This document shows, piece after piece, positions 2,854-56,769 of a stretch of 64,000 bases of DNA. Both the position numbers and the translations under genes were made by a program. This DNA comes from an uncultured Actinomycetes bacterium (GTDB lineage: Bacteria; Actinomycetota; Thermoleophilia; UBA2241). The notes beneath the pieces are model-generated. The model was not told where the DNA came from. It searched no databases and saw only the letters and a program-made list of their open reading frames with translations. Location: NCBI GenBank assembly GCA_963725665.1, contig CAVRZA010000001.1:480001-544000 (forward strand), read 5' to 3'. Positions within the stretch are counted from its first letter, which is position 1. Each line of letters starts with the position of its first letter.

Positions 2854-3012
2854 CTAGTGCTCCGCGAACACCAGCCCCGCGATCAGCGCTGCCGCCTCCC
2901 CCTGCACCGCCGGGGTGGCGTGCGAGTAGGCGTTGAGCGTGATCGAGACGGTGGCGTGACCAAGCCGCTCGGACACGACCTTGGGGTGCACGCCGGCCTG
3001 CAGCGCCAGGGT
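2854..3012 (-). repeat. Integrase 3'-end remnant (tail 1)
   Basis: Minus strand encodes TLALQAGVHPKVVSERLGHATVSITLNAYSHATPAVQGEAAALIAGLVFAEH*. Confidence 0.9.
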
Positions 3013-3846: not shown

Positions 3847-4320
3847 TCACTCGGTGCTGAACACCAGCCCCGCGATCAGTGCCGCCGCCTCCTCCTGCAT
3901 CGCCGGGATGGCATGCGAGTAGGTGTCGAGGGTGATCGAGACGGTGGCGTGACCGAGGCGCTCGGAGACGACCTTGGGATGCACACCGGCCTGCAGGGCC
4001 AGCGTCGCATGGGTGTGGCGCAGGTCGTGCAGACGGATCTGTGGCAACATCGCCTTCTTGACCGCCTGACGGAAGTAGCGTGAGACATCCTCGGGGTCGA
4101 GGGCCTCGCCGTTCTCGAGCGTGAAGACGAACCCCGTCTCGACCCACCCGTCCGCCCAGTCGCTCTGCTCGTCGAGCTGGCGTTGAGCCTGCTTCTTGAG
4201 GACCTCGACGGTTGCGGGGTCGAGGGCGATCACCCGCCGACCTTTGGCTGTCTTGGGCTCACTGACGACGACCTCGCCGTTGATGGGGATGAGGGCGCGG
4301 CGTACAGAGAGACGAGCGTT
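3847..4320 (-). pseudogene. Integrase C-terminal remnant (tail 2, ~157 codons)
   Basis: ARLSVRRALIP...PKTAKGRR...IRLHDLRHTHAT...LGHATVSITLDTYSH; abuts the MFS stop codon. Confidence 0.92.
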
Positions 4321-5557
4321 ACTGCAGTCCGGGAGAGGTAGTCGCCGGCACCGCCGGCCGGACTCTCTGCAGCGCAAACAGGACGCTGCCCAGCAAGCCT
4401 GTCGCCAAGATGAGCAGGCAGGCGCCGCGTGCACCCAGATCGTCCATGGCAATCCCACCCAGGGTGGGTCCCAGGGCGAGACCGCCTATCCAGACCAGCG
4501 TCCAGGCGCCCATGTAGCGTCCCCGCAACTCCTCGGGGGCCATCTCGGAGACGATCGTCGACGATATAGGCACGAGCAGCACCACGCCCAGGCTGACCAG
4601 TAGCACCAACGCCACGATGGGCCAGCCTGGCCCAACGAAGGCCACGCCGCCCATCCCAAGCCCGATGAGAGCGCTGGCGACCGCCATGAGGCTCATCTTG
4701 TCGCAGCCGCGCAGGCGGCGCACGAGGGGGTACTGCAGGAGCACTGCGGTCAGCGCGTAGAGGGTAACGAGCAGGCCCCAGTTGGCGGCCGAGATGCCGA
4801 GCAGGCTGGCCACCGCCACGGGGAAGGTCACCCAGAGCTGACCAAAGCCGTAGAGCGGCAGCACCATAAGAGTGCAGAAGGCAAGGAAGTGACGATCGGC
4901 AAAGACGACACGATAGCCGGCCAGCGTCGAGACGGCGGTCTCGGCCTGTGTGCGCGTGGCGGGCTTGGTCTCTTTGAGCCAGAGCAGGGTGAGCAGCACG
5001 AAGAGCAGGCAGACCGCGCCCCCCAGGGCAAAGAGGGTGCGGAAGCCGAACCCGGCGCGGAGCAGGAAGCTAGCGCAGAGGGGCCCCACGACCATGCCGG
5101 CGCTCACGGCCACGCGACTTAGGGAGTAGGCCTCGGCCCGTCGGGCGAGGGGCGTGAGGTCGGCGATGATGGCGTTGTTGGCCGTCATGAACATGGCCCA
5201 GCCACAGCCGGCCTCGAAGGCGATCACGAGCACTACTGGCCAGAGGCCTTGCGAGAAGGCGAGGCCTTCCCAGAGGACGGCGCTGGCGCAGATACCGAGG
5301 ACGAGCACGGGGCGACGGCCGTAACGGTCGGCGATAGCGCCACCGAGGATCAGCACGGGCAGGCCGACGAACATCGGCAAGCCGATGATGAGCCCGACGG
5401 TCGTCATGGTAATGTGCAGGTGGCCGTGCAGGTAGATAGTCTCGTAGGGGTAGCCAAAGTTATAGCCCAGGTGGAAGATGAAGGTGCCCGTCACAAGCAG
5501 CCAGAAGGCGGCCGGGAAGACTCGGCCGCGAGCGCGCACGCTTGTTAGCAACCCCAC
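4319..5557 (-). CDS. MFS transporter
   Basis: About 12 hydrophobic segments; motif A GAIADRYGRRP; APEELRGRYMG. Confidence 0.9.
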   Translation of the reverse strand: MGLLTSVRARGRVFPAAFWLLVTGTFIFHLGYNFGYPYETIYLHGHLHITMTTVGLIIGLPMFVGLPVLILGGAIADRYGRRPVLVLGICASAVLWEGLAFSQGLWPVVLVIAFEAGCGWAMFMTANNAIIADLTPLARRAEAYSLSRVAVSAGMVVGPLCASFLLRAGFGFRTLFALGGAVCLLFVLLTLLWLKETKPATRTQAETAVSTLAGYRVVFADRHFLAFCTLMVLPLYGFGQLWVTFPVAVASLLGISAANWGLLVTLYALTAVLLQYPLVRRLRGCDKMSLMAVASALIGLGMGGVAFVGPGWPIVALVLLVSLGVVLLVPISSTIVSEMAPEELRGRYMGAWTLVWIGGLALGPTLGGIAMDDLGARGACLLILATGLLGSVLFALQRVRPAVPATTSPGLQ

Positions 5558-8727: not shown

Positions 8728-8778
8728 TATCGATGAGTCGCATCAGGCGGCGATCGGACTTGCAGAGGGGGATCTTTG

Positions 8779-12123: not shown

Positions 12124-12191
12124 CCCATTCCGTGCGGCGGCCGCGGGGCTGAAAGGACGCGCCGAAGGCGCGCCCTGCCGTCGTAATGAAC

Positions 12192-12222
12192 GTGGACCGG
12201 CGAATGCGGTCAGGCCAGTCGG
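12192..12222 (+). promoter_or_regulatory. Conserved 31-nt leader motif, copy 2
   Basis: GTGGACCGGCGAATGCGGTCAGGCCAGTCGG upstream of second secreted gene. Confidence 0.5.
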
Positions 12223-12281
12223 CGCACGCTTGCGGTTCGCCGCGAACGGGTCATCCTCCACCGTGCGAGAGGGAGAGGGTC

Positions 12282-15200: not shown

Positions 15201-15317
15201 TCCTACCGCTTCCGTTGCCGCCTTGCCCATGGCAAGTACACGTTCAGTGTGACCACGTACGACGGCGCGCGGAACGTCTCGGCCAAGGCTGCTCATAACT
15301 ACCTGACGGTGCGGTGA
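12282..15317 (+). CDS. Secreted matrixin-like (M10-type) zinc metalloprotease with IPT/TIG and Ig-like domains
   Basis: Signal peptide; PTITNITP..GxxVTITGTGFG (IPT/TIG); EADIEFN...HELGHTLNL...VMY Met-turn. Confidence 0.85.
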   Translation: MSKHLQGVMTKHFWRVGAATGIALVAVLVVCAPAQATVVKLSVPKMSRMATTVVVGRVASATPRHVSGHGWGSIVTDTTLRIDTVLKGTAPATLTLHLPGGRIGSVREVVEDVPTLAPGDSYILFLDGQGRIVGWSEGALPVVGGAVPALGGAPLRAAEGIIHRAAHPSLTGPLRTSAGEATLARPALASPLAPLPASVTADSTVALLSSDFEAGMSGWTLAGSPTWGRTTYRKQAGSYSAYCAQSTTAAPGPYSNSMSNWMVAGPFDLSDATSAALNFDTRFDLASNDWLMVGFSTDGSNFDLMGWQGASSGGWYQDTEDLSSFGGTSYIGQPQVWVALRFTSDASGTAEGAYVDNVLLTKQTGAAPTITNITPASASAGTGSQVTITGTGFGATQGTGSVNFYYDGTDTIPGPVTSWSDTQIVCTVPTATVKGYPASTGSGPVTVTDGTGTTGPSYNGFSVPFGYGGTKWSGLGMTYRVNPNTADTTNAEALADAGASTWNGNSLFGFTDGGLCSTSSVGYDGHDDIFWGTGLPAGVLAQASYWFSGSTLSEADIEFNDSYTWSDGSGSTYDVQSIATHELGHTLNLRDLYGANDTSKVMYGYGSSGQQKRTLDPGDAAGIAWIYGSATPMSGTMVVNNDAAYTKSTTVTLDSAIVGATQMHFRNQGGSWSAWEAYSSTKSWTLAAGGDGVRTVEAEYKDAAANIYAQSDSITLDATGPTTAQSGGGSDWHTTDATVTFTPTDAGSGMSGGSAKTQYSTNGGTTWTTGASVTIVADPAGHTTDGVHAISYRSTDAIGNVETVQTTTLNIDTTPPKTTLVPVRLYELGYWNNAPCSFTFTASDAGSGVAQTQLNVDNHGWLPWSPGASDTLPAPADHSNDGTHTLLLRSVDVIGNLETAQQFSLGIDTRRPSARTPYASTVRRYAYATLKFKVLDARPSAGSCRVVIRVKTLSGRLKAKFSPTRWYTCGTLYSYRFRCRLAHGKYTFSVTTYDGARNVSAKAAHNYLTVR

Positions 15318-16317: not shown

Positions 16318-16388
16318 GGCTTCGCCGCGAACACCAGCCCCGCGATCAGTGCCGCCGCCTCTTCCTGCATCGCCGGGATGGCGTGAGA
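16314..16388 (-). repeat. Integrase 3'-end remnant (tail 3), interrupted by IS630
   Basis: SHAIPAMQEEAAALIAGLVFAAKP*. Confidence 0.9.
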
Positions 16389-17130
16389 CTAGTACTCTGG
16401 CTCGTAAGTTCGCTCACGTAAGTGGCTTCCCTCAGGCGGCTATCTCGGCGACGGGCGCGTCCTCTGCGAGGCGAGCCATGAGGTTGTCAAGGTCGCCCCG
16501 CGTGAACCTCCAGTCGAAGGGGACGGCAGCCCGCTCGTAGCGGGCCTGGAAGGCCAGGAGGCGCTCAGCGAGCTCCTCGGGCGAGGCGAAGTCGGCAGGG
16601 GTGAGCACCTTGCGCTACACGACCGAGAAGTAGATCTCGACCTGGTTGAGCCAGCTGGCGTGGATTGGCAGGTGCACGAGCACGAGCTTGGGGTAGGCCG
16701 CCGCCAGGCGCCGAATCGAGGCCGCGCCACGGTGCGAGGAGCCGTTGTCGACCACCCAGAACACGCGCCGCGCCGCGGTAGGGCGGGCTTTCCATCACCT
16801 GATCGACCAGCCTCGTGAAGGGCGCGCTGCCAGTGGCCGGCTCGATGCGTCCGAAGAGCCTGGCGCGGTGCAGGTTCCAGGCGGCCAGGGTAGGCCAGCG
16901 TGCCGCGGCGCTCGTACTCGTGCTCGACACGGCGGCAGACACCCGGCCGGGGTGGCGTTGCGCGGTGGCGGCGAGAGAGCACCTGCAGCTGGGTCTTCTC
17001 GTCGGCCGAGATCACGTACTCATCGACTTCAAGCCGCCTCCCCTGCCAGGTCCGGCCGTAGAGGTCGAGCACTCGGCCCGCCTTGGACTCGAAGTCGGGG
17101 TCGCGCGGGAAGAGCCAGCTGCGCTGACAC
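16389..17130 (-). mobile_element. IS630-family transposase remnant (5'-truncated, frameshifts, stop)
   Basis: FPRDPDF..KAGRVLDLY, ISADEKT, EHEYERRGT, VVDNGSSH, HLPIHASWLNQVEIYFS; end at CTAG. Confidence 0.85.
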
Positions 17131-18194: not shown

Positions 18195-18325
18195 TCAAGC
18201 CTCCAATACCAGACCCGCAATCAGCGCCCCCGCCTCCTCCTGCATAGCCGGGATGGCGTGCGAGTAGGTGTCCAGGGTGATCGAGACGGTGGCATGTCCG
18301 AGGCGCTCTGAGACGACCTTGGGAT
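18195..18325 (-). repeat. Integrase 3'-end remnant (tail 4)
   Basis: PKVVSERLGHATVSITLDTYSHAIPAMQEEAGALIAGLVLEA*. Confidence 0.9.
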
Positions 18326-18420
18326 CGCTGTCATGCCCGCTCGGTTACAGCGCCCGCCCGGCAAGGCGATCCCGAGATCGGTTTGCTCTGATCGCCTCGA
18401 CCCAAAGGTGGCTCAGCACA

Positions 18421-18735
18421 TCAGCAGTTGTCTCGCTGCCGGCCTCGCTCCTGAGATGCCGCCAGGCGACAGGTCTCGCAGCAGTAGCGCTTCCTGGGGT
18501 TGTCCGTGAAGAAGAGAGAGCCGCAGAGAGGCGATGCGCAGACAGTCAGGAGCTCTCTCTTTGCATGACGCCGCGGCCGCGTCGCCAAACGTCGCGATTG
18601 CTGCGAGCGATGGAGCGCGCAGTAGAGCAGCGAGTTGTAGATGCTGAGGCGGGCTGAACAACCGGGAGCGGCGCACACGCGTCCGCTGGCGTAGGTCCGG
18701 GAAGGCGTTCCGAGAGCCACCACACGATGTCCCAT
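18421..18735 (-). CDS. Small Cys-rich protein, CGNR-like zinc finger; duplicate at 46989-47303
   Basis: GGAGG RBS; CAAPGC...YCALH and CASPLC...RYCCETCR. Confidence 0.6.
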   Translation of the reverse strand: MGHRVVALGTPSRTYASGRVCAAPGCSARLSIYNSLLYCALHRSQQSRRLATRPRRHAKRELLTVCASPLCGSLFFTDNPRKRYCCETCRLAASQERGRQRDNC

Positions 18736-19049
18736 GACTGCAAGACCTCCTCGTATCCGTGACCTCTTCGCTTGAAGAGGACGTCCCGAGAACATGGTTC
18801 GGCAGGGCGTCGGACCGCCGTGAGCCGGATAGACGGATATCCCAGGCGCTTGCGAGCCTCGCTTTCGCTTGGAACCCGGTCACCTCAGGCGCAAGAATCG
18901 GCGAGGGCCAACACCGGTCACCGAAGGAGCGCTGCCCGCGAGCGCCGAGACGGTCTACTCGTCAAGGTGCTCTGCGCGTTCACGGTGTTGGGCGTGCCGA
19001 GGTTGAAGACACACCGATGCCGGCGCCGACGTCGCCTGGAGATGGGGCG

Positions 19050-19157
19050 CTACTTCGCCGCGAACACCAGCCCCGCGATCAGCGCCGTCGCCTCCTCCTG
19101 CATCGCCGGGATGGCGTGCGAGTAGGTGTACAAGGTGATGGAGACGGTGGCGTGGCC
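19050..19157 (-). repeat. Integrase 3'-end remnant (tail 5)
   Basis: GHATVSITLYTYSHAIPAMQEEATALIAGLVFAAK*. Confidence 0.9.
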
Positions 19158-20421: not shown

Positions 20422-20705
20422 CTACTTGACTGCGAAGACCAGCCCCGCGATCAGCGCCGCCGCCTCCTCCTGCAGCGCCGGGATGGCGTGCGGGTAGGTG
20501 TCGAGCGTGATCGAGACGGTGTCGTGCCCGAGGTGCTCCGAGACCACCGTGGGGTGGATGCCGGCCGGCGGGGGAGGGTGGCGTGCGTGTGGCGCAGGTC
20601 GTGCAGTTGGATGCTCGGCGCCGCCTTCTTGACTGCCTGCCCGAAGAAACGACTCACGACCTCGGGGTGCGGGGCCCGGCCGTCCTCGTGTGGAAAGATC
20701 ACCTC
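20422..20705 (-). repeat. Integrase 3'-end remnant (tail 6, divergent)
   Basis: EDGRAPHPEVVSRFFGQAVKKA..IQLHDLRHTHAT...GLVFAVK*. Confidence 0.88.
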
Positions 20706-22396: not shown

Positions 22397-22497
22397 CTAC
22401 GCCTCAGCGAACACCAGCCCCGCAATCAGCGCCGCCGCCTCCTCCTGCAGCGCCGGGATGGCGTGCCAGTAGGTGTCGAGCGTGATCGAGACGGTGC
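22397..22497 (-). repeat. Integrase 3'-end remnant (tail 8)
   Basis: TVSITLDTYWHAIPALQEEAAALIAGLVFAEA*. Confidence 0.9.
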
Positions 22498-23422: not shown

Positions 23423-23530
23423 CTACTGCCCCGCGAACACCAGCCCGGCGATCAGCGCCGCCGCCTCCTCCTGCAGCGCCGGGATGGCGTGCGAGTAGGC
23501 GTCGAGGGTGATTGCCACGGTGGCGCGTCC
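23423..23530 (-). repeat. Integrase 3'-end remnant (tail 9)
   Basis: GRATVAITLDAYSHAIPALQEEAAALIAGLVFAGQ*. Confidence 0.9.
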
Positions 23531-27100: not shown

Positions 27101-28639
27101 CCAGGAGTCCAGCAGGCTCTCGCCCTCGTCCGGTGGCATTCCCTGAAGCTCCAGCACGAGGTTCTCGGGCAGGCGGTCTGCCAGGCTCTCGAGGAGGGGA
27201 CCGGGCCTGGTCGCGGTGACCAGACGGACTTTAGCGGGCAGCTCGGAGGGCAGCCAGGACAGGTTCGTGCCCTCGCCCCCAACCAGTTGATCGAGCGAGT
27301 CCAGGAAGACGATGAGCGGCCGCTCCGCCGATGCGAGCTCGAGTCGCTTGGGCAGCTCGCGCTGGAGATCCTGCAGGGTAGATGGGACCGGCTCGCTCGA
27401 TCCGTAGGCCTCACCGATCTCGCCGCACAGGTCCTGCAGCAGGGAGCGAGGATCGGCCGAAGCCGACGTGACGCCGATAAAGCGCGTCACGATCACCGCG
27501 TCGGAATGCTTCTCGCCGGCGTCGGTAGCCGCGCGTGCCATGAGCGCCGACTTGCCGAGACCTCCGGCGGCGAACACGCAGAGGGGGTGGTCGCTCCCGC
27601 TGGCCAGGTAGCGAGCGATGGCGTCGAGGTAGCGCGCCCGCCCGATGAACCCATCGGCGTGCTCCGCCGCGAACGCGCCGTGCGCCGCGCGCTCCTGGTC
27701 AAGATGCGAGTAGGCGCCGAGCCGCTCGATCTCGGCGTCGATGACGCGCGTGAGCGACGAGAGCATGTCCGCGCAGAGCTGGTCGATGTGAGCGGTGCTC
27801 GCAGCGGCGCCGGTCCACTGGGCCTGGTACTCGAAGGCGTTGTCGCCCAGCCCCCGGTCCTGGCGAGACGCGCCGTCGCCAAGCCGCTCGCGCAGGCGGG
27901 TCTTGAGGTCTTCGAGCAGCGCCCCAGCCTCTTTGTCAGGGGTCCCGTCCTCGTGGAAGTCGCGGTAGTTCGCGGCCGGGGGCCACAGCTCCGGGTCATC
28001 GCAGGGCGGCACCCGGTCCGGTAGGCCGCTGAGGTCGCGCAGGAAACAGAAGACATGCTCGTCGGCGTACTCGGCCGCAAAGGCGCCCTTTAGGATCTCC
28101 TGTTCGGTCGCCGAGAGGGTGTACTTGGCGAGTGCGGCGTCCGGGAGACCGGCGCCGCGTGCCGCCTCAGCGAGCGCCTCGCGAAGGGCGTCCGCATCGT
28201 AGGCCGCTGCACCCTCGCGGCGCGGCTCAAGCACGTACTCCGGCGGGACCGCATTGTCGTCGCGGTAGTAGGCAGCTTCTGGGGCCGCCAAGGCCGCCGG
28301 GGCGAGTAGCGCCTTGAGGGTCTCGAACTCCTCGGCGCCGACGACTTCGGGCAGCGGGCGCCAACCGTAGCGGTCGCCGAGAAGCACGACGAAGTTCGGC
28401 CTGGGCGAGACCTCCTGGCAGCGCGCGACTTCCGAAAGGCAGATGCGCATCGTACGCTGACCGGCCGAGGCCTCTTCCCCGATGCCCCAGCGCAGATCGA
28501 CGGCCTGGAAGGCATAGCCCTTGGCCGCACAGTGTGCGCGCAGCTCCGGGAAGACCTTCTCCTGCAGCGCGTCGCGCTCCGCCTTGAGATCGCGGAAGGT
28601 GGAGGAGACGAAGACACGGAATACCCGAGTCCCGAGCAT
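24134..28639 (-). CDS. DUF4062 + NACHT/STAND NTPase + WD40 protein (NWD1/TEP1-like, NLR-like)
   Basis: RVFVSSTFRDL..ER, DLRWG, LLGDRYGW; Walker A GGLGKS; Walker B IVFLDSLD; ~13-14 GH...WD repeats. Confidence 0.92.
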   Translation of the reverse strand: MLGTRVFRVFVSSTFRDLKAERDALQEKVFPELRAHCAAKGYAFQAVDLRWGIGEEASAGQRTMRICLSEVARCQEVSPRPNFVVLLGDRYGWRPLPEVVGAEEFETLKALLAPAALAAPEAAYYRDDNAVPPEYVLEPRREGAAAYDADALREALAEAARGAGLPDAALAKYTLSATEQEILKGAFAAEYADEHVFCFLRDLSGLPDRVPPCDDPELWPPAANYRDFHEDGTPDKEAGALLEDLKTRLRERLGDGASRQDRGLGDNAFEYQAQWTGAAASTAHIDQLCADMLSSLTRVIDAEIERLGAYSHLDQERAAHGAFAAEHADGFIGRARYLDAIARYLASGSDHPLCVFAAGGLGKSALMARAATDAGEKHSDAVIVTRFIGVTSASADPRSLLQDLCGEIGEAYGSSEPVPSTLQDLQRELPKRLELASAERPLIVFLDSLDQLVGGEGTNLSWLPSELPAKVRLVTATRPGPLLESLADRLPENLVLELQGMPPDEGESLLDSWLQNSGRTLRPPQREGILGRFGARGSPLYLRLAFEEARLWPSALEEVRIGADEPAIIGDLYKRLETEHGGELVGHALGFLACAYERLGLSEDELLDALAADEETWAEFRAGAEWEMPLRQLPVVVWSRLHFDLAPYLSPRASEGASLLSFFHKELADAAQKRYVDGRSAQLHDVLANVMQRLARGKDAGAREWKGSAHALAELPYHLTRAERWDDLSATLTDFTYLEQKAKRVAVVTSAGAEGEDVGVYNGVLALIDDYDRALAAFPAAQALVGDPMTARSDQRLVLEAFAKILGREAHNLTPGPDLLWQQMYNRLQWVDGPENGGVVSGVLAPELEERSKPGAGLWLHLLTRLRESGALIRVLAGHTGLVGAVAYSPDGSRIVSGSGTRFLSGSEDNTLKVWDAVSGAELATLTGHTGHVQAVAYSPDGSRIVSGSGDNTLKIWDAVSGAELLTLSGHTDSVYAVAYSPDGNRIVSGSGDNTLKVWHADTGAELAALTGHTSHVQAVAYSPDGSRIASASGDSTLKVWDAAAGTELAALSGHTDHVTAVAYSPDGSRIASGSWDNTLKIWDAVSGAELATLSGHTKPVLTVAYSPDGTCIASGSDDYTVRVWDAANGAELATLSGHTYSVSAVAFSPDGTRIVSGSGDGTLKVWDPAGDAELTALSGHTDWVRAVACSRDGSRIVSGSRDCTLKVWDAVSGAELLTLSGTGYVEAVAYSPDGSRIVDGCAYDNTAKVWDAASGAELLTLTGHTGYVFAVAYSPDGSRIASGSDDHTLRVWDAASGAELATFSGHTEGVNTVAYCPDGTRIVSGSSDGTLRVWDAASGAELATFSGHDDSVRAVAYSPDGTRIVSGSGDGTLKVWDAANGVELATFRGHTGSVTAVAYSPDGSRIASGSWDSSTLTLWDAQNMECVAMLPCLGFVSCCDYSPQGTRICCGDTSGTVYILEPMGESLDPHPVARPIESREEPDRGPVASEERRRWWRRRG
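24380..26010 (-). repeat. Intragenic 126-bp WD40 repeats
   Basis: gccgtccggggagtaggcgac recurs at ~126 bp period. Confidence 0.9.
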
Positions 28640-28738: not shown

Positions 28739-28808
28739 CTACCTTTCCGCGAAGAGCAGCCCCGCGATCAGCGCCGCCTCCTCCTGCATCGCCGGGATGG
28801 CGTGCGAG
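28739..28808 (-). repeat. Integrase 3'-end remnant (tail 10, minimal 70 bp)
   Basis: SHAIPAMQEEAALIAGLLFAER*; homology ends at the edge of the inverted repeat. Confidence 0.9.
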
Positions 28809-30122: not shown

Positions 30123-30440
30123 CTACGCTTCCGCGAACACGACTTCGCTTCCGGGAACACGAGCCCCGCGATCAGCGTTGCCTCCTCCTCCTCCTCCTCC
30201 TGCTGCTGCTGCATCGCCGGGATGGCGTGCGATTGGGTGTCGAGGGTGATCGAGACCGTGGCATGCCCCAGGCGCTCATTCTCACCTGTGACTCGACGAT
30301 CAGCGTTGCCCCCTCCTGCCGAGGCGCTCGGAGACGACCTTGGGATGCACGCCGGCCTGCAGGGCCAGGGTCGCGTGGGTGTGGCGCAAGTCGTGCAACC
30401 TGATCGTCGGTAGCATCCCCTTCTTGTCGGCTTGACGGAC
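30123..30440 (-). repeat. Rearranged integrase 3'-end remnant(s) (tail 11) with triplet expansion
   Basis: Local 17-bp duplication, (CTC)n(TGC)n expansion, then second piece IRLHDLRHTHATLALQAGVHPKVVSERLG at 30318-30440. Confidence 0.88.
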
Positions 30441-30519: not shown

Positions 30520-30604
30520 ACTGGCGCGCGAACATCAGCCCCGCGATCAGCGCCGCCGCCTCCTCCTGCATGGCCGGGATGGCGTGTGGAGTAGGTGTCG
30601 AGGG
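30520..30604 (-). repeat. Integrase 3'-end remnant (tail 12)
   Basis: HAIPAMQEEAAALIAGLMFAR. Confidence 0.88.
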
Positions 30605-31854: not shown

Positions 31855-31943
31855 CTACGTGGCGCTTAACACCAGCCCCGCGATCAACACCGCCGCCTCC
31901 TCCTGCAGCGCCGGGATGGCGTGCGAGTAGGTGTCGAGGGTGA
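31855..31943 (-). repeat. Integrase 3'-end remnant (tail 13)
   Basis: TLDTYSHAIPALQEEAAVLIAGLVLSAT*; preceded by TGCCGAC pair at 31819/31831. Confidence 0.9.
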
Positions 31944-33248: not shown

Positions 33249-34470
33249 CTACTCGCCTGCGAACACCAGCCCCGCGATCAGCGCCGCCGCCTCCTCTTGC
33301 AGCGCCGGGATGGCGTGTGAGTAGGTGTCGAGCGTGATTGAGACGGTCGCGTGCCCGAGGCGCTCGGAGACGACCTTGGGATGCACGCCGGCCTGCAGGG
33401 CCAGGGTCGCGTGTGTATGGCGCAGGTCGTGCAGCCTGATCTGTGGCAACATCGCCTTCTTCACGGCCTGGCGGAAGTAGCGCGAGACGTCCTCGGGGTC
33501 CAGAGCCTCGCCGTTCTCGAGCGTGAACACGAGCCCCGATTCGACTCCGGCCTCCTCCCATTCACTCTGCTCGTCGAGCTGGCGCTGCGCCTGCGCCTTC
33601 AGGACCTCGACGGTCACTGGGTCGAGGGCAATGACGCGGCGGCCCTTGGCCGTCTTGGGTTCGCTCACCACGACCTCGTTCTTGATGGGGATGAGGGCGC
33701 GGCGCACCTAGAGCCGCGCTTTCTCGAGGTCGACGTCGCTCCAGCGCAGGCCGAGGGCCTCGCCTCGTCTCATGCCCGTCATCGCGATCAAATGCCAGAG
33801 GGGATGGAGGCGGTCGTCCTTCACTGAGTCCAAGAACGCCTTGAGCTGCTCCTTGGTCCAGGTGCGCATCTCCTTGGTGCCGTCGCCCTTCTTGCACGGT
33901 GGGTCGGCGGCGTCCAAGGGGTTCCTGGAGATGTGACCCCACCTGACGGCGTCCTTGCAGGCCTTGTGGAGACAGGCGTGGACGTGGTTGATGGTCATGG
34001 GGGAGAGGCCCTTCTTGCCGTTCTTCTTGCCGCTCTCGGCGAGCTTCGCGTAGAGGGCGTTGACCTGACTGCCGGTGAGCTTGGCCAGCTTCAGCGCACC
34101 GATGTGGGGCACGATGTGGTAATCGACGTGCTGCACGTAGGAGTTGTAGGTCGAGGGGCGGATGGTGGCCTTTACGGCCGGCAGCCACTCCTTGGTCAGG
34201 TACTCCTTGACCGTCATCTTGGTCGGCGGCCGGTAGGTCTACTGTTCGACGGCGACGAGCAGCTTGTTCATGGCCGCCTGGCACTCCTTCTCGAGGGCAA
34301 AGCCGCCCTTGATGGCGCGGCGGCGCTCGACGGTGTCGGTCAGCTCACCACCGCACCTTGGGCAGTTCTCTTTGGGTTTGCGCTCGACCCAGTATCGCTT
34401 CCTGCAGGCCGGGCAGCGCTGGGCGTCGTGCATGCCGATGTCGACGATGTACTCCCAAGAGCCGGGATCG
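33249..34470 (-). pseudogene. Near full-length tyrosine recombinase/integrase with N-terminal zinc-ribbon insert; two in-frame TAG stops
   Basis: Three same-frame ORFs separated by TAG at 34239-41 and 33708-10; WEYIVDIG arm motif, TGMRRGE, PKT, HDLRH, LGH, catalytic Y in DTY; no clear start codon. Confidence 0.92.
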
Positions 34471-36591: not shown

Positions 36592-36753
36592 CTACTTGTT
36601 TGCGAACACCGGCCCCGCGATCAGCGCTGCCGCCTCCTCCGGCATTGCCGGGATGGCGCGCGAGTAGGTGTCCAGGGTGATGGAGACGGTGGCATGCCCG
36701 AGGCGCTCGCTGACGAGCTTGGGAAGCACGCCGGCCTGCAGGGCAAGGGTGGC
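36592..36753 (-). repeat. Integrase 3'-end remnant (tail 15)
   Basis: ATLALQAGVLPKLVSERLGHATVSITLDTYSRAIPAMPEEAAALIAGPVFANK*. Confidence 0.9.
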
Positions 36754-37616
36754 AAGTCACGGTTTGGGCGCCGACGACGGCCGAGCAGGCGGAGGCGCGA
36801 TTGAACGAGATCAGGGCGTCGTTAAGGGATCTCGGGCTCGATGATGACGCCAAGCTCGCCGACTGACGCATGGAGTCGGGATCCGCCCCCGCATACGCAG
36901 ACTGCCTTCCGACACAGCAGCGGCCGGCATGGACAGTGTGTGAGCTTTGCGTCCACCTCCAGCCCTGGGTTGAGATTGCCTGTTCTCTAGCGCCGGTTCT
37001 CTGCGTCCCGAGGTTAAGGGGCCACGTTCCCGGACTCCGTCCCCCACTCGCGGTCTTTGTGGGTTGCGGCCATCGGAGTGCCATGTGGTGTGGGCGCCGG
37101 CAAGTGTCGGCAGGGGCCGGCTTCGATGTGAGGTCGTCGAGATGAGTGGCGTCGGCATCGCGTCGGCGCAGTCGCCAGACTGCGCGCATAACGCGACGTT
37201 GTGACAACTCTTCAGGTTACGTGAACCTGTGACGCCAGCTCTGCGTGTCGCCGCTCAGGAAACGGGAATTCCTTTGTGAACCCTTAGACCGCTTTGTCAC
37301 CCTTCACGCCTGACCGCGCTCCATGCAGCACTCCTCCTTGGAGGGAGGGTGGCTACGCTGCCGGCTCGAGACGGTTACATAAGACAGTCGCCCTCCCGAG
37401 CCTCCCTCTGGTTGCTGTCACACTCGAGTTGTACAGTCGGCCTACAGGCATGAGGGGGATCAGGGGGGGATCGCTTGGAGCACCTATCATCTGACGTGGA
37501 ATCCCGATCGCTACGGCTGGGATGACCTAGTTGGCGCTGCGAGCGGATAGACAGTCGCGCCCCTTTCCTGCCTGTCCTTTCGGGCGTACAGTGGCGCCGT
37601 CGACAAGGGGGGGCTC

Positions 37617-38003
37617 ATGGACAACTGGATCCTGTGGGACGACCCAACGAACGAAGACCCGGTCGGTCGCGCTGCCTCCTGCGACAGGCAACTGCGGTAC
37701 TACCTCGGACAGCGCGTCTTCGACTTCATCCCTGCAGCGCACGAAGATCCGGATACTACGCACACGCTGGTCGCAGGGTACATCAACCTAACGCTCAGAG
37801 AGTGGCGCTCGCTGGTCGGGCGCGACGATGGCGTGCTGACGTTCAGACAGCCGGACGACCCCTACGAGAAGACGTATATCTTAGAGATCCCAGCGGACCC
37901 CAACGTACCCGACGACCGGGGGGAACTCAATAGAATCGCCAAAGACGCGGCCGTCCGCCGACTCTTCCGCCATGTGCAAGCGGAACTAGTGGACAGCAAC
38001 TAA
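37617..38003 (+). CDS. Hypothetical protein; duplicate at 56285-56671
   Basis: G-rich RBS, 128 aa, identical protein at both loci. Confidence 0.7.
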   Translation: MDNWILWDDPTNEDPVGRAASCDRQLRYYLGQRVFDFIPAAHEDPDTTHTLVAGYINLTLREWRSLVGRDDGVLTFRQPDDPYEKTYILEIPADPNVPDDRGELNRIAKDAAVRRLFRHVQAELVDSN

Positions 38004-38151
38004 CCCCGAGCGAGCTGGGGCGGCCGTCGGCGTTCTGGCCCGCAGATCCTCATGCTGTTCACAGCGGCTCTCCGAAAGATGGGGAGTCGGGTCAGCGCCC
38101 CAGGCATACGGGAGCGTACGTCGTCGTGCGACGGTGCAGAGGGGAGAGCGC

Positions 38152-45463: not shown

Positions 45464-46300
45464 GGCCATGTCCGTCAAGGTGGTGTACGAAGGAGCTCGC
45501 TCCTCCTCGCCTGATCCTCAGCCGACGGCCGCTACGAGCGCCGGCATGACCTCCTCCTCGTTTGCGTCATCGTCGCTCGCCTCGAGCTCGGCCGGGGGCC
45601 TCGTCAGCGCGGCCAGCGAGTCGGCGCTCATGTAGCGCCGCGCTACGGCCCACTCGTCGTCTTGTTCGGCGAGCACCATGCCGACGAGGCGCACGACGGC
45701 CTCGCGGCCGGGGAAGATGCCGACCACGTCGCTTCTGCGGCGGATCTCGCGGTTGAGACGCTCCTGGGGGTTGTTGGACCAGATCTGCCGCCAGTGGGCC
45801 AGCGGGAAGGCGGCGAAGGCGGTGATGTCGGGCGCTGCCCGCTCGAGCAGCTCGGCGGCGGCCGGGAAGCGCCTGGCGAGCTGCTCGGACACGCGCTCCA
45901 GCTGGGCCGCGACCTCCGCGGCGGAGGGCTGCGCGAAGATGGTGCGCACCAGGGTGGCCACGAAGGGCTGGGCGCTGCGCGGCACGCGGGCCAGCAGGTT
46001 GCGCATGAAGTGCGTTCTGCACCTCTGCCAGCTGGCCCCGCTCAGGTGCGCGTCGATCGCCCGCGTGAGGCCGCGGTGATCATCGCTGATGACGAGCTGC
46101 ACCCCGGCCAGGCCGCGGGAGGTGAGGCCGGCCAGGAAGTCGCTCCAGGCGGCCTCGTCCTCGCTTGTGAAGACGTCGAGGCCGAGGATCTCACGCAGGC
46201 CGTCAGCGCTGACCGCCGTCGCGACCACGACGGCGACGCGCACGATACGCCCCTCTTCCCGCGTCTTCATGGCCAGTGCGTCGAGCCACAGGTACTCGAT
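45464..46300 (-). mobile_element. IS256-family transposase remnant (5'-truncated) with right end
   Basis: YLWLDAL, GLREILG, VISDDHRGL, WQRCRTHFMRN, IWSNNPQERLNREIRRRSDVVGIFP. Confidence 0.9.
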
Positions 46301-46450
46301 GTGACTGTCCTCACTCAAGTGAGGTACCTGCCGGACCCCATTCATTGCTCCACTTCTTATGTTAGTCGCAGGGGCGCGACAGGTACCGTATCGCATGAAG
46401 AGTCTGCCAAGCGCGCCTAGACGCGTGGCCCACGACGCCGAGGAGGCACC

Positions 46451-46714
46451 ATGCCGACCGTAATCGGATATCACGATGTCAAGGACAAGGACCACTGGCT
46501 TGCCTCGCCAAAGCGCGAAGAGGTTTTCGGGCCCCTGGGGGTTACCAACATCCGCACGTTCGTCGACCCGGAGAAGCCAACCCGAGTAGCCGTGCTCATG
46601 GACGTTGCTGACATGGACGCCCTCATGGCCGCGATGCAGACCGAAGCGATGGCCGAGGCCATGGCGTACGACGGCGTGCTGCCCGAAACCCTGGTGATCC
46701 TCGTCGAGGCGTAG
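46451..46714 (+). CDS. Hypothetical protein
   Basis: GAGGAGG RBS; 87 aa; ends 47 bp before tail 16. Confidence 0.75.
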   Translation: MPTVIGYHDVKDKDHWLASPKREEVFGPLGVTNIRTFVDPEKPTRVAVLMDVADMDALMAAMQTEAMAEAMAYDGVLPETLVILVEA

Positions 46715-46761: not shown

Positions 46762-46892
46762 CTAGGTGGCGAACACCAGCCCGGCGATCAGCGCCCCCGC
46801 CTCCTCCTGCATCGCCGGGATGGCGTGCGAGTAGGTGTCGAGGGTGATCGAGACGGTGGCATGTCCGAGGCGCTCTGAGACGACCTTGGGAT
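46762..46892 (-). repeat. Integrase 3'-end remnant (tail 16)
   Basis: Same truncation point (GACCTTGGGAT|CGCTGTC) as tail 4. Confidence 0.9.
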
Positions 46893-46988
46893 CGCTGTCA
46901 TGCCCGCTCGGTTACAGCGCCCGCCCGGCAAGGGCGATCCTGAGATCGGTTTGCTCTGATCGCCTCGACCCAAAGGTGGCTCAGCACA

Positions 46989-47303
46989 TCAGCAGTTGTC
47001 TCGCTGCCGGCCTCGCTCCTGAGATGCCGCCAGGCGACAGGTCTCGCAGCAGTAGCGCTTCCTGGGGTTGTCCGTGAAGAAGAGAGAGCCGCAGAGAGGC
47101 GATGCGCAGACAGTCAGGAGCTCTCTCTTTGGATGACGCCGCGGCCGCGTCGCCAAACGTCGCGATTGCTGCGAGCGATGGAGCGCGCAGTAGAGCAGCG
47201 AGTTGTAGATGCTGAGGCGGGCTGAACAACCGGGAGCGGCGCACACGCGTCCGCTGGCGTAGGTCCGGGAAGGCGTTCCGAGAGCCACCACACGATGTCC
47301 CAT
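46989..47303 (-). CDS. Small Cys-rich CGNR-like zinc-finger protein (copy 2)
   Basis: One aa different from 18421-18735. Confidence 0.6.
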   Translation of the reverse strand: MGHRVVALGTPSRTYASGRVCAAPGCSARLSIYNSLLYCALHRSQQSRRLATRPRRHPKRELLTVCASPLCGSLFFTDNPRKRYCCETCRLAASQERGRQRDNC

Positions 47304-47550
47304 GACTGCAAGACCTCCTCGTATCCGTGACCTCTTCGCTTGAAGAGGACGTCCCGAGAACATGGTTCGGCAGGGCGTCGGACCGCCGTGAGCCGGATAG
47401 ACGGATATCCCAGGCGCTTGCGAGCCTCGCTTTCGCTTAGGATCCGGTCACCTCAGGCGGCATGGCAGCTGCGAATGCGGATGAGCGGGTCCTTCAGATG
47501 GCGCGCGCCGAGCCCTAGCCAGACCTGCCCTCTTGTCGCGCCTCGGCCTA

Positions 47551-48003: not shown

Positions 48004-48124
48004 GCCTCCACCTTCCATCCGAGTGCTCCCAACCGGGAGTTGAGAGGGCTATTCCCGAGGCGCAACGGGAGGAATCTGACCGAGCGTTTGAGGGTGCCCC
48101 GCTTCGGTGGACAGTCTCGGGTTT

Positions 48125-48189
48125 GCGTGCGACTAGATGTCGAGCGTGGTCGAGACGGTGGCGTGGCCGAGTCGCTCTGAGACCACGGT
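48125..48189 (-). repeat. Integrase internal remnant (tail 17, lacks terminal hairpin half)
   Basis: VVSERLGHATVSTTLDI*SH. Confidence 0.75.
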
Positions 48190-49428: not shown

Positions 49429-49686
49429 CTACTTAGCTGCGAAGACCAGTTCGGCGATTCTCGTCGCCGCCTCTTCTTGCATCGCCGGGATGGCGTGCGA
49501 GTGAGTGTCGAGCGGATTGCGACGGTGACGTGCCCGAGGCGCTCGGAGACGACCGTGGGATGTACGCCCGCTTGCAGAGCAAGGGTGGCGTGGGCGTGCC
49601 GCAGGTCATGCGGCCTGATCTGCGGCAGCATCGCCTTCTTCTCTGCCCGTCGGAAGTGGCGCGTGACTGTCTCCGGGTCGAGCGCG
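49429..49686 (-). repeat. Integrase 3'-end remnant (tail 18, divergent allele)
   Basis: ALDPETVTRHFRRAEKKAMLPQIRPHDLRH...QEEAATRIAELVFAAK*. Confidence 0.9.
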
Positions 49687-50144: not shown

Positions 50145-50328
50145 GCACATCCTCTCTCTCGCCTCATCGGTCACTCCCATGACTTCCCCCGTCCCCGCGT
50201 GGGAAAGCGGATTGTCGTTTGCGCTCGCTCGCGCACGCGGGTGACGCGGGCGTCGCAAGGGGCACAGTGGCGGGCGCACGCAGGACGTTGGTTTCGAGTC
50301 CAAGGGCAGGCGCTCGACGTGCAACCGT

Positions 50329-50437
50329 CTAGTTCCCCGCGAACACCAGCCCCGCGATCAGCGCCGCCGCCTCCTCCTGCATCGCCGGGATGGCGTGCGA
50401 GTAGGTGTCGAGGGTGATCGCGACGGTGGCGTGTCCG
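50329..50437 (-). repeat. Integrase 3'-end remnant (tail 19)
   Basis: GHATVAITLDTYSHAIPAMQEEAAALIAGLVFAGN*. Confidence 0.9.
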
Positions 50438-50543
50438 GGGCGAATCGCCACGGGCATCCCCTGTGATGGCGTCTTCACCGGCCTGTCGGACGCCGGATTG
50501 GGGGAGAACACTGCAAGACAGGGACTGAGGAGGTGTCGCGCGC

Positions 50544-50987
50544 ATGGCTCGTCTGGTGGGAATCAATCACGTAGCGCTCGAAGTCGCAGACGTCGGCGAG
50601 GCCCTTGACTGGTACGGGCGCTTCTTCTCCTTCGATTTGCGTGGCAGAGTCGGCTCGAGGGCGGCCTTCATCGACATGGGCGACCAGTTCCTCGCGCTCA
50701 TGGCGGGACGTACGCAGCCCCCCGACGCGGTAAGGCACGTCGGGCTGGTGGTCGACGATAAGGAAGCTGTGCGACGGCAGCTCAGGCGGGAGGGCATAAG
50801 CGTGCAGGAATCCGGATCTCTGGACTTCACAGATCCCTGGGGTAACCACGTGCAGGTCGTCGACTACCGCGAGATCCAGTTCACGAAGGCCCCGTCGGTG
50901 CTGCGCGGCATGGGGCTCGAGGAGCTTGGCAAGACCGAGCAGGCGCTCGATGAGCTGCGCAAGAAGGGACTCGCCCGTGAGCCATAG
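50544..50987 (+). CDS. VOC/glyoxalase family protein (copy of 19933-20376)
   Basis: 147 aa, 7 aa differences from copy 1. Confidence 0.9.
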   Translation: MARLVGINHVALEVADVGEALDWYGRFFSFDLRGRVGSRAAFIDMGDQFLALMAGRTQPPDAVRHVGLVVDDKEAVRRQLRREGISVQESGSLDFTDPWGNHVQVVDYREIQFTKAPSVLRGMGLEELGKTEQALDELRKKGLAREP

Positions 50988-51030: not shown

Positions 51031-51207
51031 CTACTCGCCTGCGAACACCAGCCGCGCGATCAGTGCCGCCGCCTCCTCCTGCATCGCCGGAATGGCGTGC
51101 GAGTAGGTGTCGAGCGTGATCGAGACAGTCGCCGTGTCCGAGACGTTCGCTGACGACCTTCGGGTGAACACCGGATGCAGGGCGAGGGTGGCGTGGGTGT
51201 GGCGTAG
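51031..51207 (-). repeat. Integrase 3'-end remnant (tail 20)
   Basis: LRHTHATLAL...VHPKVVSERLGH...LVFAGE*. Confidence 0.9.
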
Positions 51208-51452
51208 ACCGCCGTCACTCCCGCAGTGGTCGGGCTGGGACCCTCGTCGCAGTGGGCCCGGGCGGGTGCCAGGCCGGCGGCGACCGATAGCGCCGCTGCG
51301 AAGCCTCTGGTCAGCCGCCTCGGGGGGTGCGGCGGGTGCCCTATGCCCTGGCCGGGGGAATAGATAGTTGCACGGTCAAATGGCCGTGGCGTCGTGGCCG
51401 GCGAGAACAGTCTCGGCGGCGGACGCGTCCAGTCGCCAACGAGGACTATGCC

Positions 51453-51746
51453 ATGCCCGCACTCACCTCCCCGAAGACCTTCGACTGCGAGATCTGCAGC
51501 GCGGTCCTGAAGTCGCAGCGGGACCTCGACAACCATATGTGCTTGCTTCACGACGACTGCGGTGAGGCACGGCTCGGCACCCCGATCACGTTTCGCTGCG
51601 CCACCTGCGGGGAGGCCTTCGCGCGCCGCGGCGACCTGTATGCTCACCTGCGCCAGCGCCGCCACGGACACCCCGCCGAGTGGGATATGGCGCGTCCGCC
51701 GGGTGCGCAGCGCCTGCGCGGCCGGCCTGGGCGTCGCAGCGGCTGA
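51453..51746 (+). CDS. Small protein with two C2H2 zinc fingers
   Basis: FDCEIC...LDNHMCLLH and FRCATCGEAF....DLYAHLRQRRH. Confidence 0.75.
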   Translation: MPALTSPKTFDCEICSAVLKSQRDLDNHMCLLHDDCGEARLGTPITFRCATCGEAFARRGDLYAHLRQRRHGHPAEWDMARPPGAQRLRGRPGRRSG

Positions 51747-51829: not shown

Positions 51830-51974
51830 CTGTTTCGTCGCGACCAACAGCCCGGCGATCAGTGCCGCCGCCTCCTCCTGCAGCGCCGGGACGGCGTGCG
51901 AGTAGGTGTCGAGGGTGATGGAAACGGTGGCGTGACCGAGACGCTCCGAGACCACCTTGGGGTGGATGCCCGCG
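51830..51974 (-). repeat. Integrase 3'-end remnant (tail 21)
   Basis: AGIHPKVVSERLGHATVSITLDTYSHAVPALQEEAAALIAGLLVATK. Confidence 0.9.
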
Positions 51975-53215: not shown

Positions 53216-53334
53216 CTATCTGGCCGCAAAGACCAGCTCCGCGATCCTGGCCGCCGCCTCTTCCTGCGTCGCCGGGATGGCGTCGAGCGCCCGGGCCATG
53301 CCGGCGTCTCGATCACCCTCGATACCTACTCGCA
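53216..53334 (-). repeat. Integrase 3'-end remnant (tail 22) with internal inversion
   Basis: 53216-53282 minus strand AIPATQEEAAARIAELVFAAR*; 53283-53334 encodes ERPGHAGVSITLDTYS on plus strand. Confidence 0.88.
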
Positions 53335-53572
53335 ATCCCCCGCCAAATCAGGTGATTGCGATGCTGTCGCGGCATGCCAGGAGAATGGTGCTTTCCGCTC
53401 CGGCCACAGCCTCCTCTGATCCCGTTATCACCGGGCCCCGCGAGGCCCCTGGCGGGGCGCCTTCTCTCTGCAGGGGCGACGGCCCGCCGGTCACATGCTA
53501 GACGACGGGTCGGGGTATAGTGCGAGGTTGAGTGTGCGGTCTACGTTGTCGATAGATGAAGAGACCTCCTGG

Positions 53573-54751
<1,179 letters not shown>

Positions 54752-55622: not shown

Positions 55623-55927
55623 TCAGCGTGGACGGCGACGGCCGCGTCTGTCGACCCCGCTGCCGGTCATGACATAGGGCAGCAGCGCCATCTCGCGGGC
55701 GCGCTTGATGGCGAGGGCGACCTGGCGCTGATGGCGCCGGCAGGAGCCAGTGGTGCGCGGCGGCTTGATCTTGCCCTTGTCGTTGATGAAGCGGCGCAGG
55801 ACGGTGGAGTCCTTGTAGTCGACCTCGTCGATCTTCTCCTTGCAGAAGTGGCAGTAGCGACGGCGTGAGGGGTCCAAGGGACGGTCCCTCTTCTTCTCGG
55901 GCCGCGACTTGCCTTGCGGCTCGGCAT
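55623..55927 (-). CDS. rpsR: Ribosomal protein S18 paralog, probable frameshift near 55880
   Basis: RRRYCHFC..IDEVDYKD..LRRFI..GKI.P.R.TG.C..HQR.VA.AIKRAREMALLPY; RBS-linked ATG 55927 is in a different frame. Confidence 0.8.
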
Positions 55928-55977
55928 GCTGGTTCCTTTCTCGGCCGCCTAGGCGAGCGGGCGTGCTGGTGGGAGGC

Positions 55978-56170
55978 TCAGCATGTCCCCATGAGAGTTG
56001 CTGCACAAGACCCACAGGCTGGGACGGGCTGCCTTGGGCAGGCGTTGCCAAGGGCGTCACTCGATCGCGCCTCCTGCAGGCTGCGCAGGCCGTCGCCGTC
56101 GGGCGGCGCCGCCGTGACCGCCACCTGCTCACCGCGCTCGTTGAGCAGGCAAACGTCCAAGCGCTTCCTT
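55978..56170 (-). mobile_element. IS110-family remnant (internally deleted)
   Basis: RKRLDVCLLNERGEQV...PPDGDGLRSL resembles IS110 transposase N-terminus. Confidence 0.5.
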
Positions 56171-56284
56171 GTCGGCGGCGACGGTCGAGCATCGCGACAA
56201 GGGCTGCGGGCGGATAGACAGTCGCGCCCCTTTCCTGCCTGTCCTTTCGGGCGTACAGTGGCGCCGTCGACAAAGGGGGGGGTC

Positions 56285-56671
56285 ATGGACAACTGGATCC
56301 TGTGGGACGACCCAACGAACGAAGACCCGGTCGGTCGCGCTGCCTCCTGCGACAGGCAACTGCGGTACTACCTCGGACAGCGCGTCTTCGACTTCATCCC
56401 TGCAGCGCACGAAGATCCGGATACTACGCACACGCTGGTCGCAGGGTACATCAACCTAACGCTCAGAGAGTGGCGCTCGCTGGTCGGGCGCGACGATGGC
56501 GTGCTGACGTTCAGACAGCCGGACGACCCCTACGAGAAGACGTATATCTTAGAGATCCCAGCGGACCCCAACGTACCCGACGACCGGGGGGAACTCAATA
56601 GAATCGCCAAAGACGCGGCCGTCCGCCGACTCTTCCGCCATGTGCAAGCGGAACTAGTGGACAGCAACTAA
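56285..56671 (+). CDS. Hypothetical protein (copy of 37617-38003)
   Basis: Identical translated sequence. Confidence 0.7.
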   Translation: MDNWILWDDPTNEDPVGRAASCDRQLRYYLGQRVFDFIPAAHEDPDTTHTLVAGYINLTLREWRSLVGRDDGVLTFRQPDDPYEKTYILEIPADPNVPDDRGELNRIAKDAAVRRLFRHVQAELVDSN

Positions 56672-56769
56672 CCCCGAGCGAGCTGGGGCGGCCTATCGGC
56701 GTTCTGGCTGGGAATCCGTCGCGACGAGCACGATGGAGAGCGCGACGAGGGCGGCGACGAGCAGGAGCG

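Follow-up and report, generated by a model that had tools for sequence, protein, structure and literature searches.

An array of integrase gene tails in an uncultured Thermoleophilia bacterium: folded hairpin or double-stranded recombination site?

Why do the last codons of an integrase gene recur, in one and the same orientation, at the borders between gene cassettes? The question is raised by the window, i.e., the whole stretch of 64,000 nucleotides analysed here (C1:480001-544000 of a genome of 3.73 Mb in 12 contigs). One of the many integrase tails in it, at 50338-50401, had been singled out in the first-pass annotation as an attC-like hairpin hidden inside coding sequence and as the site at which cassettes are recombined. 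Three answers are weighed below: a folded single-stranded site, a double-stranded site of the att type, and a remnant devoid of any site function.

The tail, its array and its integrase

The minus strand of 50338-50401 encodes the last 21 codons at the integrase's 3' end, S-H-A-I-P-A-M-Q-E-E-A-A-A-L-I-A-G-L-V-F-A (TCG CAC GCC ATC CCG GCG ATG CAG GAG GAG GCG GCG GCG CTG ATC GCG GGG CTG GTG TTC GCG). Directly ahead of Ser-His stands …TLDTY, the Tyr motif of tyrosine recombinases, and Phe-Ala is followed by G-N-stop; the focal minus-strand frame reads …TLDTYSHAIPAMQEEAAALIAGLVFAGN*. Positions within tails are counted in the sense direction from p0, the C of the His codon; in the focal copy, p is converted to a window coordinate by subtracting it from 50397. 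The 64 nt delineated by the first-pass annotation extend from p-4 to p+59.

Three statements had been made about the letters of 50338-50401 and all of them are correct. The inverted repeat, with 16/21 pairs, is read directly; our own scan returns it at offset 50337 (0-based) with a spacer of 22. The inward extension by CAG/CTG and the single unpaired G (position 22, on the bottom, i.e., coding, strand) are present in the minimum-energy fold of the single-stranded DNA. Finally, the shortest tail, 28739-28808, ends at the outer edge of the repeat: similarity to the integrase is lost exactly at 28808, and the same point is reached by the tail at 16326-16389.

In the window, 19 matches were counted for each half of the tail, exclusively on one strand; shuffled sequences give about 0. 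We located 21 tail cores in the window, all on the same strand (Table 1). The array as a whole measures 85 kb and holds about 27 tail copies, which form the boundaries between gene cassettes; 25 full tails are positioned within C1:473-550 kb at spacings of 375-17570 nt. Additional copies are found on C2, C3, C6, and C8. Among each other the tail copies are 74-93% identical in sequence.

Judged from the aligned copies, the central spacer of the tail is a hot spot of slippage: it has undergone expansions, and two copies in the window are short of one GCG codon. At 30171-30215 the spacer of one tail has grown to (CAG)4(GAG)6-like triplets, and a similar GAG expansion is present in a relative (L039:680-760).

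Table 1. Tails, integrase pieces and parts of the focal repeat in the window (window coordinates).
Feature	Position	Strand	Remark
Tail copy with 46-aa integrase fragment	2863..2926	-	
Integrase C-terminal half	3847..4485	-	PF00589; ends in tail core 3856-3919
Short tail	16326..16389	-	integrase similarity starts at Ser-His codons
Tail copy	18201..18264	-	opens 688-nt alignment, 98.3% identity, to 46772-47459
Tail copy	19059..19122	-	cargo junction …RPGHATV… common to copies at 23432 and 50338
Tail copy	20431..20494	-	
Tail copy without one GCG codon	21531..21591	-	
Tail copy	22406..22469	-	
Tail copy	23432..23495	-	synonymous GCG>GCC adds one stem pair; -18.9 kcal/mol, z -1.36
Short tail without one GCG codon	28748..28808 (28739-28808 with stop)	-	minimum-energy fold differs from proposed stem
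Tail copy, CAG/GAG triplets expanded in central spacer	30152..30233	-	
Tail copy	30527..30590	-	
Tail copy	31864..31927	-	
Full-length integrase pseudogene, two in-frame stops	33249..34400	-	PF14659 and PF00589; ends in tail core 33258-33321
Tail copy	36601..36664	-	
Tail copy, duplicate partner of 18201 copy	46768..46831	-	
Integrase fragment without distal tail	48118..48186	-	
Diverged tail copy	49438..49501	-	
Focal tail core	50338..50401	-	last 21 codons (Ser-His...Phe-Ala) of integrase fragment; open frame 50329-50562
Parts of focal repeat	left arm 50338-50358; CAG 50359-50361; loop 50362-50376; CTG 50377-50379; bulged base 50380; right arm 50381-50401		
Exchange/half-tail zone, window-equivalent, inferred from other copies	50353..50377		p+20 to p+44
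Tightest cluster within exchange zone, inferred	50370-50377		p+20..+27; sense GGAGGAGG
Tail copy	51040..51103	-	bounds VOC/glyoxalase cassette 50544-50984
Tail copy	51839..51902	-	
Diverged tail, last of window's array	53225..53288	-	230 nt downstream of sigma-70 gene (53576-54751, -)
Inverted integrase fragment (…GHAGVSITLDTYS…)	53296..53352	+	similarity stops near sense p+21

The longer integrase copies match PF00589 (E 3e-16 to 1e-21) as well as PF14659, an N-terminal SAM-like domain, and they contain the HxxR and Tyr motifs (…LHDLRHTHAT…TLDTYSH…). Among solved structures, the best sequence matches are 3nkh and 6emy/6en0; the 'Int protein' of the latter we take to be the integrase of Tn1549. 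The alignments with 3nkh and 6emy extend through YSH and past it. IntI is absent among the PDB sequence matches at E<=0.001. Against the integron-integrase model TIGR02249 the enzyme attains 43.7 and 41.6 bits at a cutoff of 265, against NF011946 26-29 bits at a cutoff of 435. By these matches the enzyme is a generic phage-type tyrosine integrase and not IntI-like.

Two full-length copies reside inside the array, that at 33249-34400 and another, with frame changes, at C1:478176-479313. None of the five close full-length copies in the source genome is free of stops or frame changes, among which assembly errors are possible; the only uninterrupted paralogue, C2:582105-583226, is 54% identical. 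The integrase fragments of the array which are not full-length are all C-terminal (query start at residue 224 or later), and remnants consisting only of an N-terminus are absent from the array.

Tail DNA was matched in 20 of the 40 related Thermoleophilia genomes searched, five of which have 16-21 matches. One relative, G024, has an uninterrupted integrase of 380 aa followed by eight tails on the same strand over 62 kb. Tails of the focal family also appear to be abundant in four peat/wetland metagenomes (X1-X4): the bin containing the focal tail, 50273-50539, has a summed contig depth of 37-494 as against mostly 0-30 in the neighbouring cargo bins.

Stability and covariation of the inverted repeat

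The form in which integron attC sites are recombined is the bottom strand, folded and with extrahelical bases. Following this precedent, the tail was supposed to fold on its bottom, integrase-coding, strand into an imperfect hairpin with an extrahelical G and to be recombined as single-stranded DNA. At first sight the focal copy is accommodating. The proposed stem, including CAG/CTG and the bulged G, is the minimum-energy single-stranded fold of both strands. At -16.1 kcal/mol the bottom strand surpasses the top strand (-13.1 kcal/mol) in stability by 3 kcal/mol, and it belongs to the lowest 3% of shuffles with synonymous codons (n=2000, genome codon usage; z -1.9, with a fraction of 0.03 folding at least as stably; top strand z -0.5 and 0.29). 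Further, the conserved unit and the pair of arms have their outer limits, on both sides, at the same places. The layout is like that of attC: a centre of 15 nt is flanked by arms of about 21-25 nt, and the copies stand in arrays of small cassettes, all in one orientation. The wobble positions of the arms face each other, and the stem could be tuned with the protein left unchanged.

Different pictures emerge when the fold is compared with other backgrounds and with other copies. Natural coding windows of 63 nt (n=3000) fold at least as well in 14% of cases for the bottom and in 33% for the top strand. Dinucleotide shuffles of the focal copy result in z-values of -0.44 (bottom) and -0.14 (top); four other tail copies have -0.09, +0.06, +0.35, and -1.36. 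Of six copies folded, two (28748 and 33258) have a minimum-energy structure other than the stem. A stability clearly above that of composition-matched sequence is not discernible. Moreover, repeats with at least 16/21 pairs and a spacer of 16-28 nt are common in this genome with its 68% G+C: 84 loci were counted in 300 kb of an array-free contig, one per 3.6 kb. The inverted repeat exceeds chance only marginally and, taken alone, is within the chance range. However attractive, an inverted repeat met with in coding DNA rich in GC is no evidence for a folded site.

Covariation points in the same direction. Among the 26 copies of the source genome none of the 19 pairs has changed on both sides, and 86.6% of the cells are paired as against 87.1% in shuffles. 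When 137 distinct tails from the source and related genomes are taken together, paired cells amount to 82.9% (82.8% in shuffles), cells changed on both sides to 11 (12.9 expected), and the covariation score to 0.062 (0.062 in shuffles). The test did have power. In the register of the stem, six column pairs join one third codon position to another, and each side of these wobble-wobble pairs is variable in 15-39 of about 137 tails. Joint changes at the six pairs, observed versus expected under independence, are 9/8.0, 4/2.4, 5/3.4, 2/2.2, 7/6.3, and 4/3.4 (all Fisher p>0.2), i.e., the two sides vary independently. The first-pass annotation had itself named stability no greater than that of matched shuffles and a lack of covariation as findings against the hairpin, and both are what we found.

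The ends of the arms do not help either. The consensus of the integron R''/R' box is RYYYAAC … GTTRRRY at the base of the stem. The top strand of the tail starts with CGCGAAC and ends with GTGCGAG, the bottom strand starts with CTCGCAC and ends with GTTCGCG; only the AAC/GTT triplets fit the consensus, and in the stem these two are not opposite one another. A search of the 64-kb window against Rfam at gathering thresholds returned no match. Considering in addition an integrase far below the cutoff of the integron-integrase model (41-44 bits vs 265) and exchange points in the loop and inner stem (see below), we cannot uphold the attC-like folded hairpin and consider it very improbable. The inverted repeat would then be either a by-product of the coding sequence or the two protein-binding arms of a double-stranded site.

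Tail edges, exchange points and cassette accretion

The edges of the tail were mapped in 184 tails from the source genome and its relatives, 100 on fragments and 84 on full-length copies. Of the fragment tails, 24 have their start within p 0 to -4 and directly adjoin unrelated DNA; the other 76 starts are scattered, with one to three per position, out to -260. At the opposite edge of the repeat, p+58 to +60, similarity to the majority sequence ends in 82 of the 184 tails, and in a further 32 it ends at p+68/69, at the modal stop (p+66-68); in the majority of cases, then, conservation does not go beyond Phe-Ala or the stop, and Phe-Ala is the commonest limit. The pile-up of starts together with the end of similarity at p+58 to +60 makes the conserved unit identical with the 64 nt of the first-pass annotation. 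The first in-frame stop is located 20-23 codons after the His in 62/100 fragment tails and in 64/84 full-length copies; 25 fragment tails have no in-frame stop within 40 codons.

The meaning of the p-4 to 0 edge is apparent from the short tails L016/L064/L103 and L038/L049, which form two families with members in different genomes. Within each family the cargo, upstream of p-4, matches at 85-95% identity, and beyond the stop the DNA is unrelated. Thus, this edge is an inherited joint between cargo and tail and not an exchange point. On these alignments we take the unit to be 'cargo + tail'.

Exchange points are traced inside the tail. The clearest case is that of L032 and L033, two paralogous segments of 3.4 kb from the same contig of a relative, which are 99% identical save for an extra unit of 1441 nt in L033, bounded by two tails. 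The single tail of L032 matches the integrase-side copy at sites +6 and +20, and the distal copy at +23, +32, +36, and everywhere downstream, with 100% identity. These informative sites place the exchange between p+20 and p+23, window-equivalent 50374-50377. One site, +15, is discordant, and four mismatches are clustered at -22 to +15. An all-against-all megablast comparison of the genome and 101 loci for more gains or losses of cassettes returned only this pair.

Several other junctions are located in the same region. Eight independent distal half-tails start at p+21 to +25 with unrelated DNA upstream (E<0.01), and three proximal pieces end at p+21, +23, and +27; one of the latter is the inverted fragment 53296-53352. 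Three other comparisons set the break further 3'. The duplicates 18205-18891 and 46772-47459 (98.3%) are near-identical only from ATCAG onward; they share a rare variant at p+31 and have their first mismatch at p+41, and the break for the tails at 18221/46788 is at p+31 to +41. Two G014 copies diverge after p+43, and between L092 and L102 the identity shifts from 78% to 95% near p+37. The within-genome duplicates 19903-20597/50514-51207 and 23423-23751/50329-50657 have no sharp break. All told, the inferred joints cover about 25 nt.

Public sequencing runs were consulted as well (20 runs, each containing at most 0.14 of the sampled words; contigs were examined from four peat/wetland runs). One wetland contig departs from the focal tail at 50374, and loose ends are present at 50329 and 50337; these are weak hints. 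No circular junction was seen in the contigs of the four runs, which are mostly shorter than 350 nt (longest listed 425) and have their depth piled on the tails. Tail-tail joints at equivalent repeat positions in these contigs are uninformative with respect to excision.

Crossovers mapping outside the hairpin had been named as a third finding against it. None was found outside, all inferred points are within the 64 nt; but they occupy the wrong part for a reaction of the attC type, in which cleavage takes place in the R box, at the base of the stem. The joints are in the loop and inner stem, where the folded strand offers a tyrosine recombinase no duplex to bind, and this favours a double-stranded reaction.

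The reading we prefer, with a probability of roughly 60%, is an integrase-mediated, double-stranded accretion of cassettes into the integrase's own 3' end, in which each insert brings along a replacement tail. Circular DNA carrying its own tail copy would recombine with the resident tail, the exchange occurring in or beside the central GAG-GAG-GCG-GCG-GCG spacer. As the incoming DNA has a tail of its own, the reading frame of the integrase would always be completed by the replacement. Both products would keep a complete tail, and the integrase at the head of the array would therefore never be truncated. Older tails would be pushed downstream and in time give rise to a one-orientation array of 'cargo + tail' units. 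The pile-up at p-4 to 0 would represent the smallest complete site; longer integrase pieces may be sites which are yet to be trimmed, or may be left over from elements that carried an integrase. Catalysis of the exchange by the integrase itself, a double-stranded substrate, and the place of the exchange are inferences.

The proposal that the dual-use sequence is the recombination site accordingly has two parts with different fates. As an attC-like hairpin it finds no support. In the double-stranded, att-type sense the tail probably is a recombination site. Indirectly this is borne out by several findings: the tail is the only sequence common to the cassette boundaries, its edges are discrete, a 1441-nt unit lies between two tails in one of two paralogous loci and is missing from the other, and half-tails and exchange points are inside it. 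As for an att-type repeat, direct repeats made of the 3' end of the target gene flank the inserted DNA. Around the tails no other shared repeat was found which flanks the units and might be the true att site. A canonical core, two arms around 6-8 bp, was looked for by eye and returned weak candidates only, CATC-N5-GATG and a 7/12 match around GAGGAGG. Against double-stranded accretion speak the single clean gain or loss of a cassette, with its discordant site +15, the scatter of the break points, a core found only as weak candidates, the two non-significant comparisons of conservation given below, the interrupted close integrase copies of the source genome, and the fact that no circular junction was seen.

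Could the array have arisen passively, from integrase-bearing elements side by side which were remodelled by deletions together with unequal crossing-over or gene conversion dependent on RecA, the 64 nt being devoid of site function? The break points are spread over p+20 to +44 and single out no base; as they are not fixed to a few bases, they leave room for homologous recombination. Nor is the tail conspicuously protected. At synonymous sites of 79 full-length genes it is not significantly more conserved than the upstream sequence (third-codon entropy 0.81 vs 0.97 bits, p 0.12), and in fragments its preservation (0.813) does not significantly exceed that of the integrase piece next to it (0.765; p 0.10). 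The scattered integrase-side ends in 76/100 fragments and the uniformly broken close integrase copies of the source genome would also fit, as would the differences between tails, which are mostly at third codon positions as expected after divergence inside working genes. However, random decay should leave N-terminal pieces too, and the array has none. The starts of 24/100 fragments within 5 nt of one another beside unrelated DNA, and those of eight half-tails, again within 5 nt of one another, are difficult to reconcile with passive loss, as is the lack of another shared repeat flanking the units as a true att site. Finally, units of 0.4-1.6 kb with single small genes are hard to derive from whole integrative elements. 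We regard this explanation as less likely, though RecA-dependent exchange between the repeats is still a serious rival.

Cargo, related systems and neighbours

Between the tails are single small genes or larger blocks. The small units, 0.4-1.6 kb in length, carry single small genes. The cargo as a whole comprises VOC/glyoxalase (three), YCII, cupin, SnoaL, an HTH protein, a BlaI-like repressor, nitroreductase, Rieske, GNAT, zinc-type dehydrogenases, MFS and ammonium transporters, a 1501-aa WD40 protein, a 2-oxoacid:ferredoxin oxidoreductase block, and a Mutator-family transposase. VOC/glyoxalase, cupin, SnoaL, YCII, and GNAT are cargo types common in chromosomal integron cassettes.

Like integron arrays, the tail array has one orientation. 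Its units are small, most of them hold a single gene, and at the end of each is a repeat of about 60-70 nt whose two inverted arms are imperfect; in G024 a tyrosine recombinase gene heads the array, as in integrons. The differences are equally clear. In the tail repeat it is the sequence, not the structure, that is conserved, and unlike attC the repeat is coding. The site is inside the integrase gene instead of at a separate attI, and the inferred joints are central and not in an R box. The integron survey of Cury et al. (2016; PMC4889954), in its available text, found no complete integron in Actinobacteria genomes.

Other relatives in logic are found among integrative elements. The tycheposons of Prochlorococcus, according to the accessible portion of the preprint, integrate serially into the 3' end of a tRNA gene: the incoming element carries the 3' end of the target, which makes the gene whole again and shifts its former 3' piece away (bioRxiv 10.1101/2020.12.28.424599). 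Repeated integration pushes earlier elements inward in such islands and leaves partial target copies and fragmented integrases behind, as the same portion describes (bioRxiv 10.1101/2020.12.28.424599). As far as that description goes, serial integration into a gene's 3' end is common to both systems. The target of the tails, however, is the integrase's own 3' coding end and not a tRNA gene, and the units are much smaller, most of them lacking an integrase of their own.

The attachment site of Sfi21-type phages of Streptococcus thermophilus overlaps the 3' end of int, and recombination between complete and truncated integrase genes has been observed (PMC3952083, available part). Theirs are single prophage insertions at a host site, with no cassette-like units described in that part, in contrast to the array of about 27 tails here. 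SSV-type ('suicidal') archaeal integrases have their site of recombination inside the very gene that encodes them, which is split upon integration (review PMC8371274, in the section available). Compared with what that section relates, the tail site is at the extreme 3' end and in a bacterial host; the tails complete the frame, and the head integrase of G024 is uninterrupted. As the partner supplies an equivalent tail, the integrase gene would stay whole, unlike in SSV-type splitting.

A search of the literature by titles and abstract openings returned no description of arrays of integrase 3' tails. Tentatively, and with more doubt than for the accretion itself, one may see in these arrays a chromosomal gene-capture platform of Thermoleophilia, integron-like yet independent of integrons. 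A phage-type integrase would use the last ~64 nt of its own frame, and cassettes would bring a replacement C-terminus; two inverted arms of ~21-25 nt around an exchange zone of ~15 nt would converge on attC, possibly with an unusually long crossover region. The underlying tail array, rather than the hairpin, is the object of interest. If the tails are true recombination sites, they represent a second, independently evolved route to one-orientation cassette arrays, in a poorly known lineage of soil and peat. Its logic would be unlike that of integrons, with a site inside the recombinase gene that is repaired by each insert. Two tails and one integrase would then be a testable system for the origin of cassette-type behaviour in tyrosine recombinases.

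The array is bordered by a complete sigma-70 gene (regions 1.1-4; 53576-54751, minus strand). At least five paralogues exist in the genome, one of them 98% identical with a frame break. A homologous sigma gene is located beside a tail-family integrase in two relatives (L036 and L066). A role of the sigma-70 gene as a fixed anchor of the array was considered and rejected in view of paralogues on C3, C4, and C6 (C3:18001-25368, C4:78538-79614, and C6:172400-173515 of the source genome, G000). Next to this gene, at 53216-53352, the last tail of the array stands head-to-head with the inverted integrase fragment, which runs into a different C-terminus on the plus strand; the arrangement looks like the product of an inversion or of a secondary-site event.

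Some of the cargo is peculiar in itself. The 1501-aa ORF (24137-28639, minus strand), positioned between two tails, contains 13 tandem WD40 repeats of 126 nt (42 aa) with 65-90% DNA identity. An ORF of 1115 aa (8776-12120, plus strand) is built of 144/156-nt tandem repeats with a match to the DUF5122 beta-propeller; it adjoins an ORF of 1043 aa (12186-15314) with matrixin, TIG, and Big_13 domains. The Mutator-family transposase (45521-46495, minus strand; PF00872, E 9e-78) lies in the array beside the tail at 46768. A cassette ORF of 139 aa (51327-51743, plus strand) matches eukaryote-type C2H2 zinc-finger models (PF00096, E 4e-8, with no stretch passing alone), which is unusual in a bacterium. 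Lastly, 37536-38039 and 56203-56708 are direct duplicates of 504 nt with 99% identity, 18.7 kb apart; one copy is outside the tail array, near an ORF resembling ribosomal protein S18 (55626-56273).
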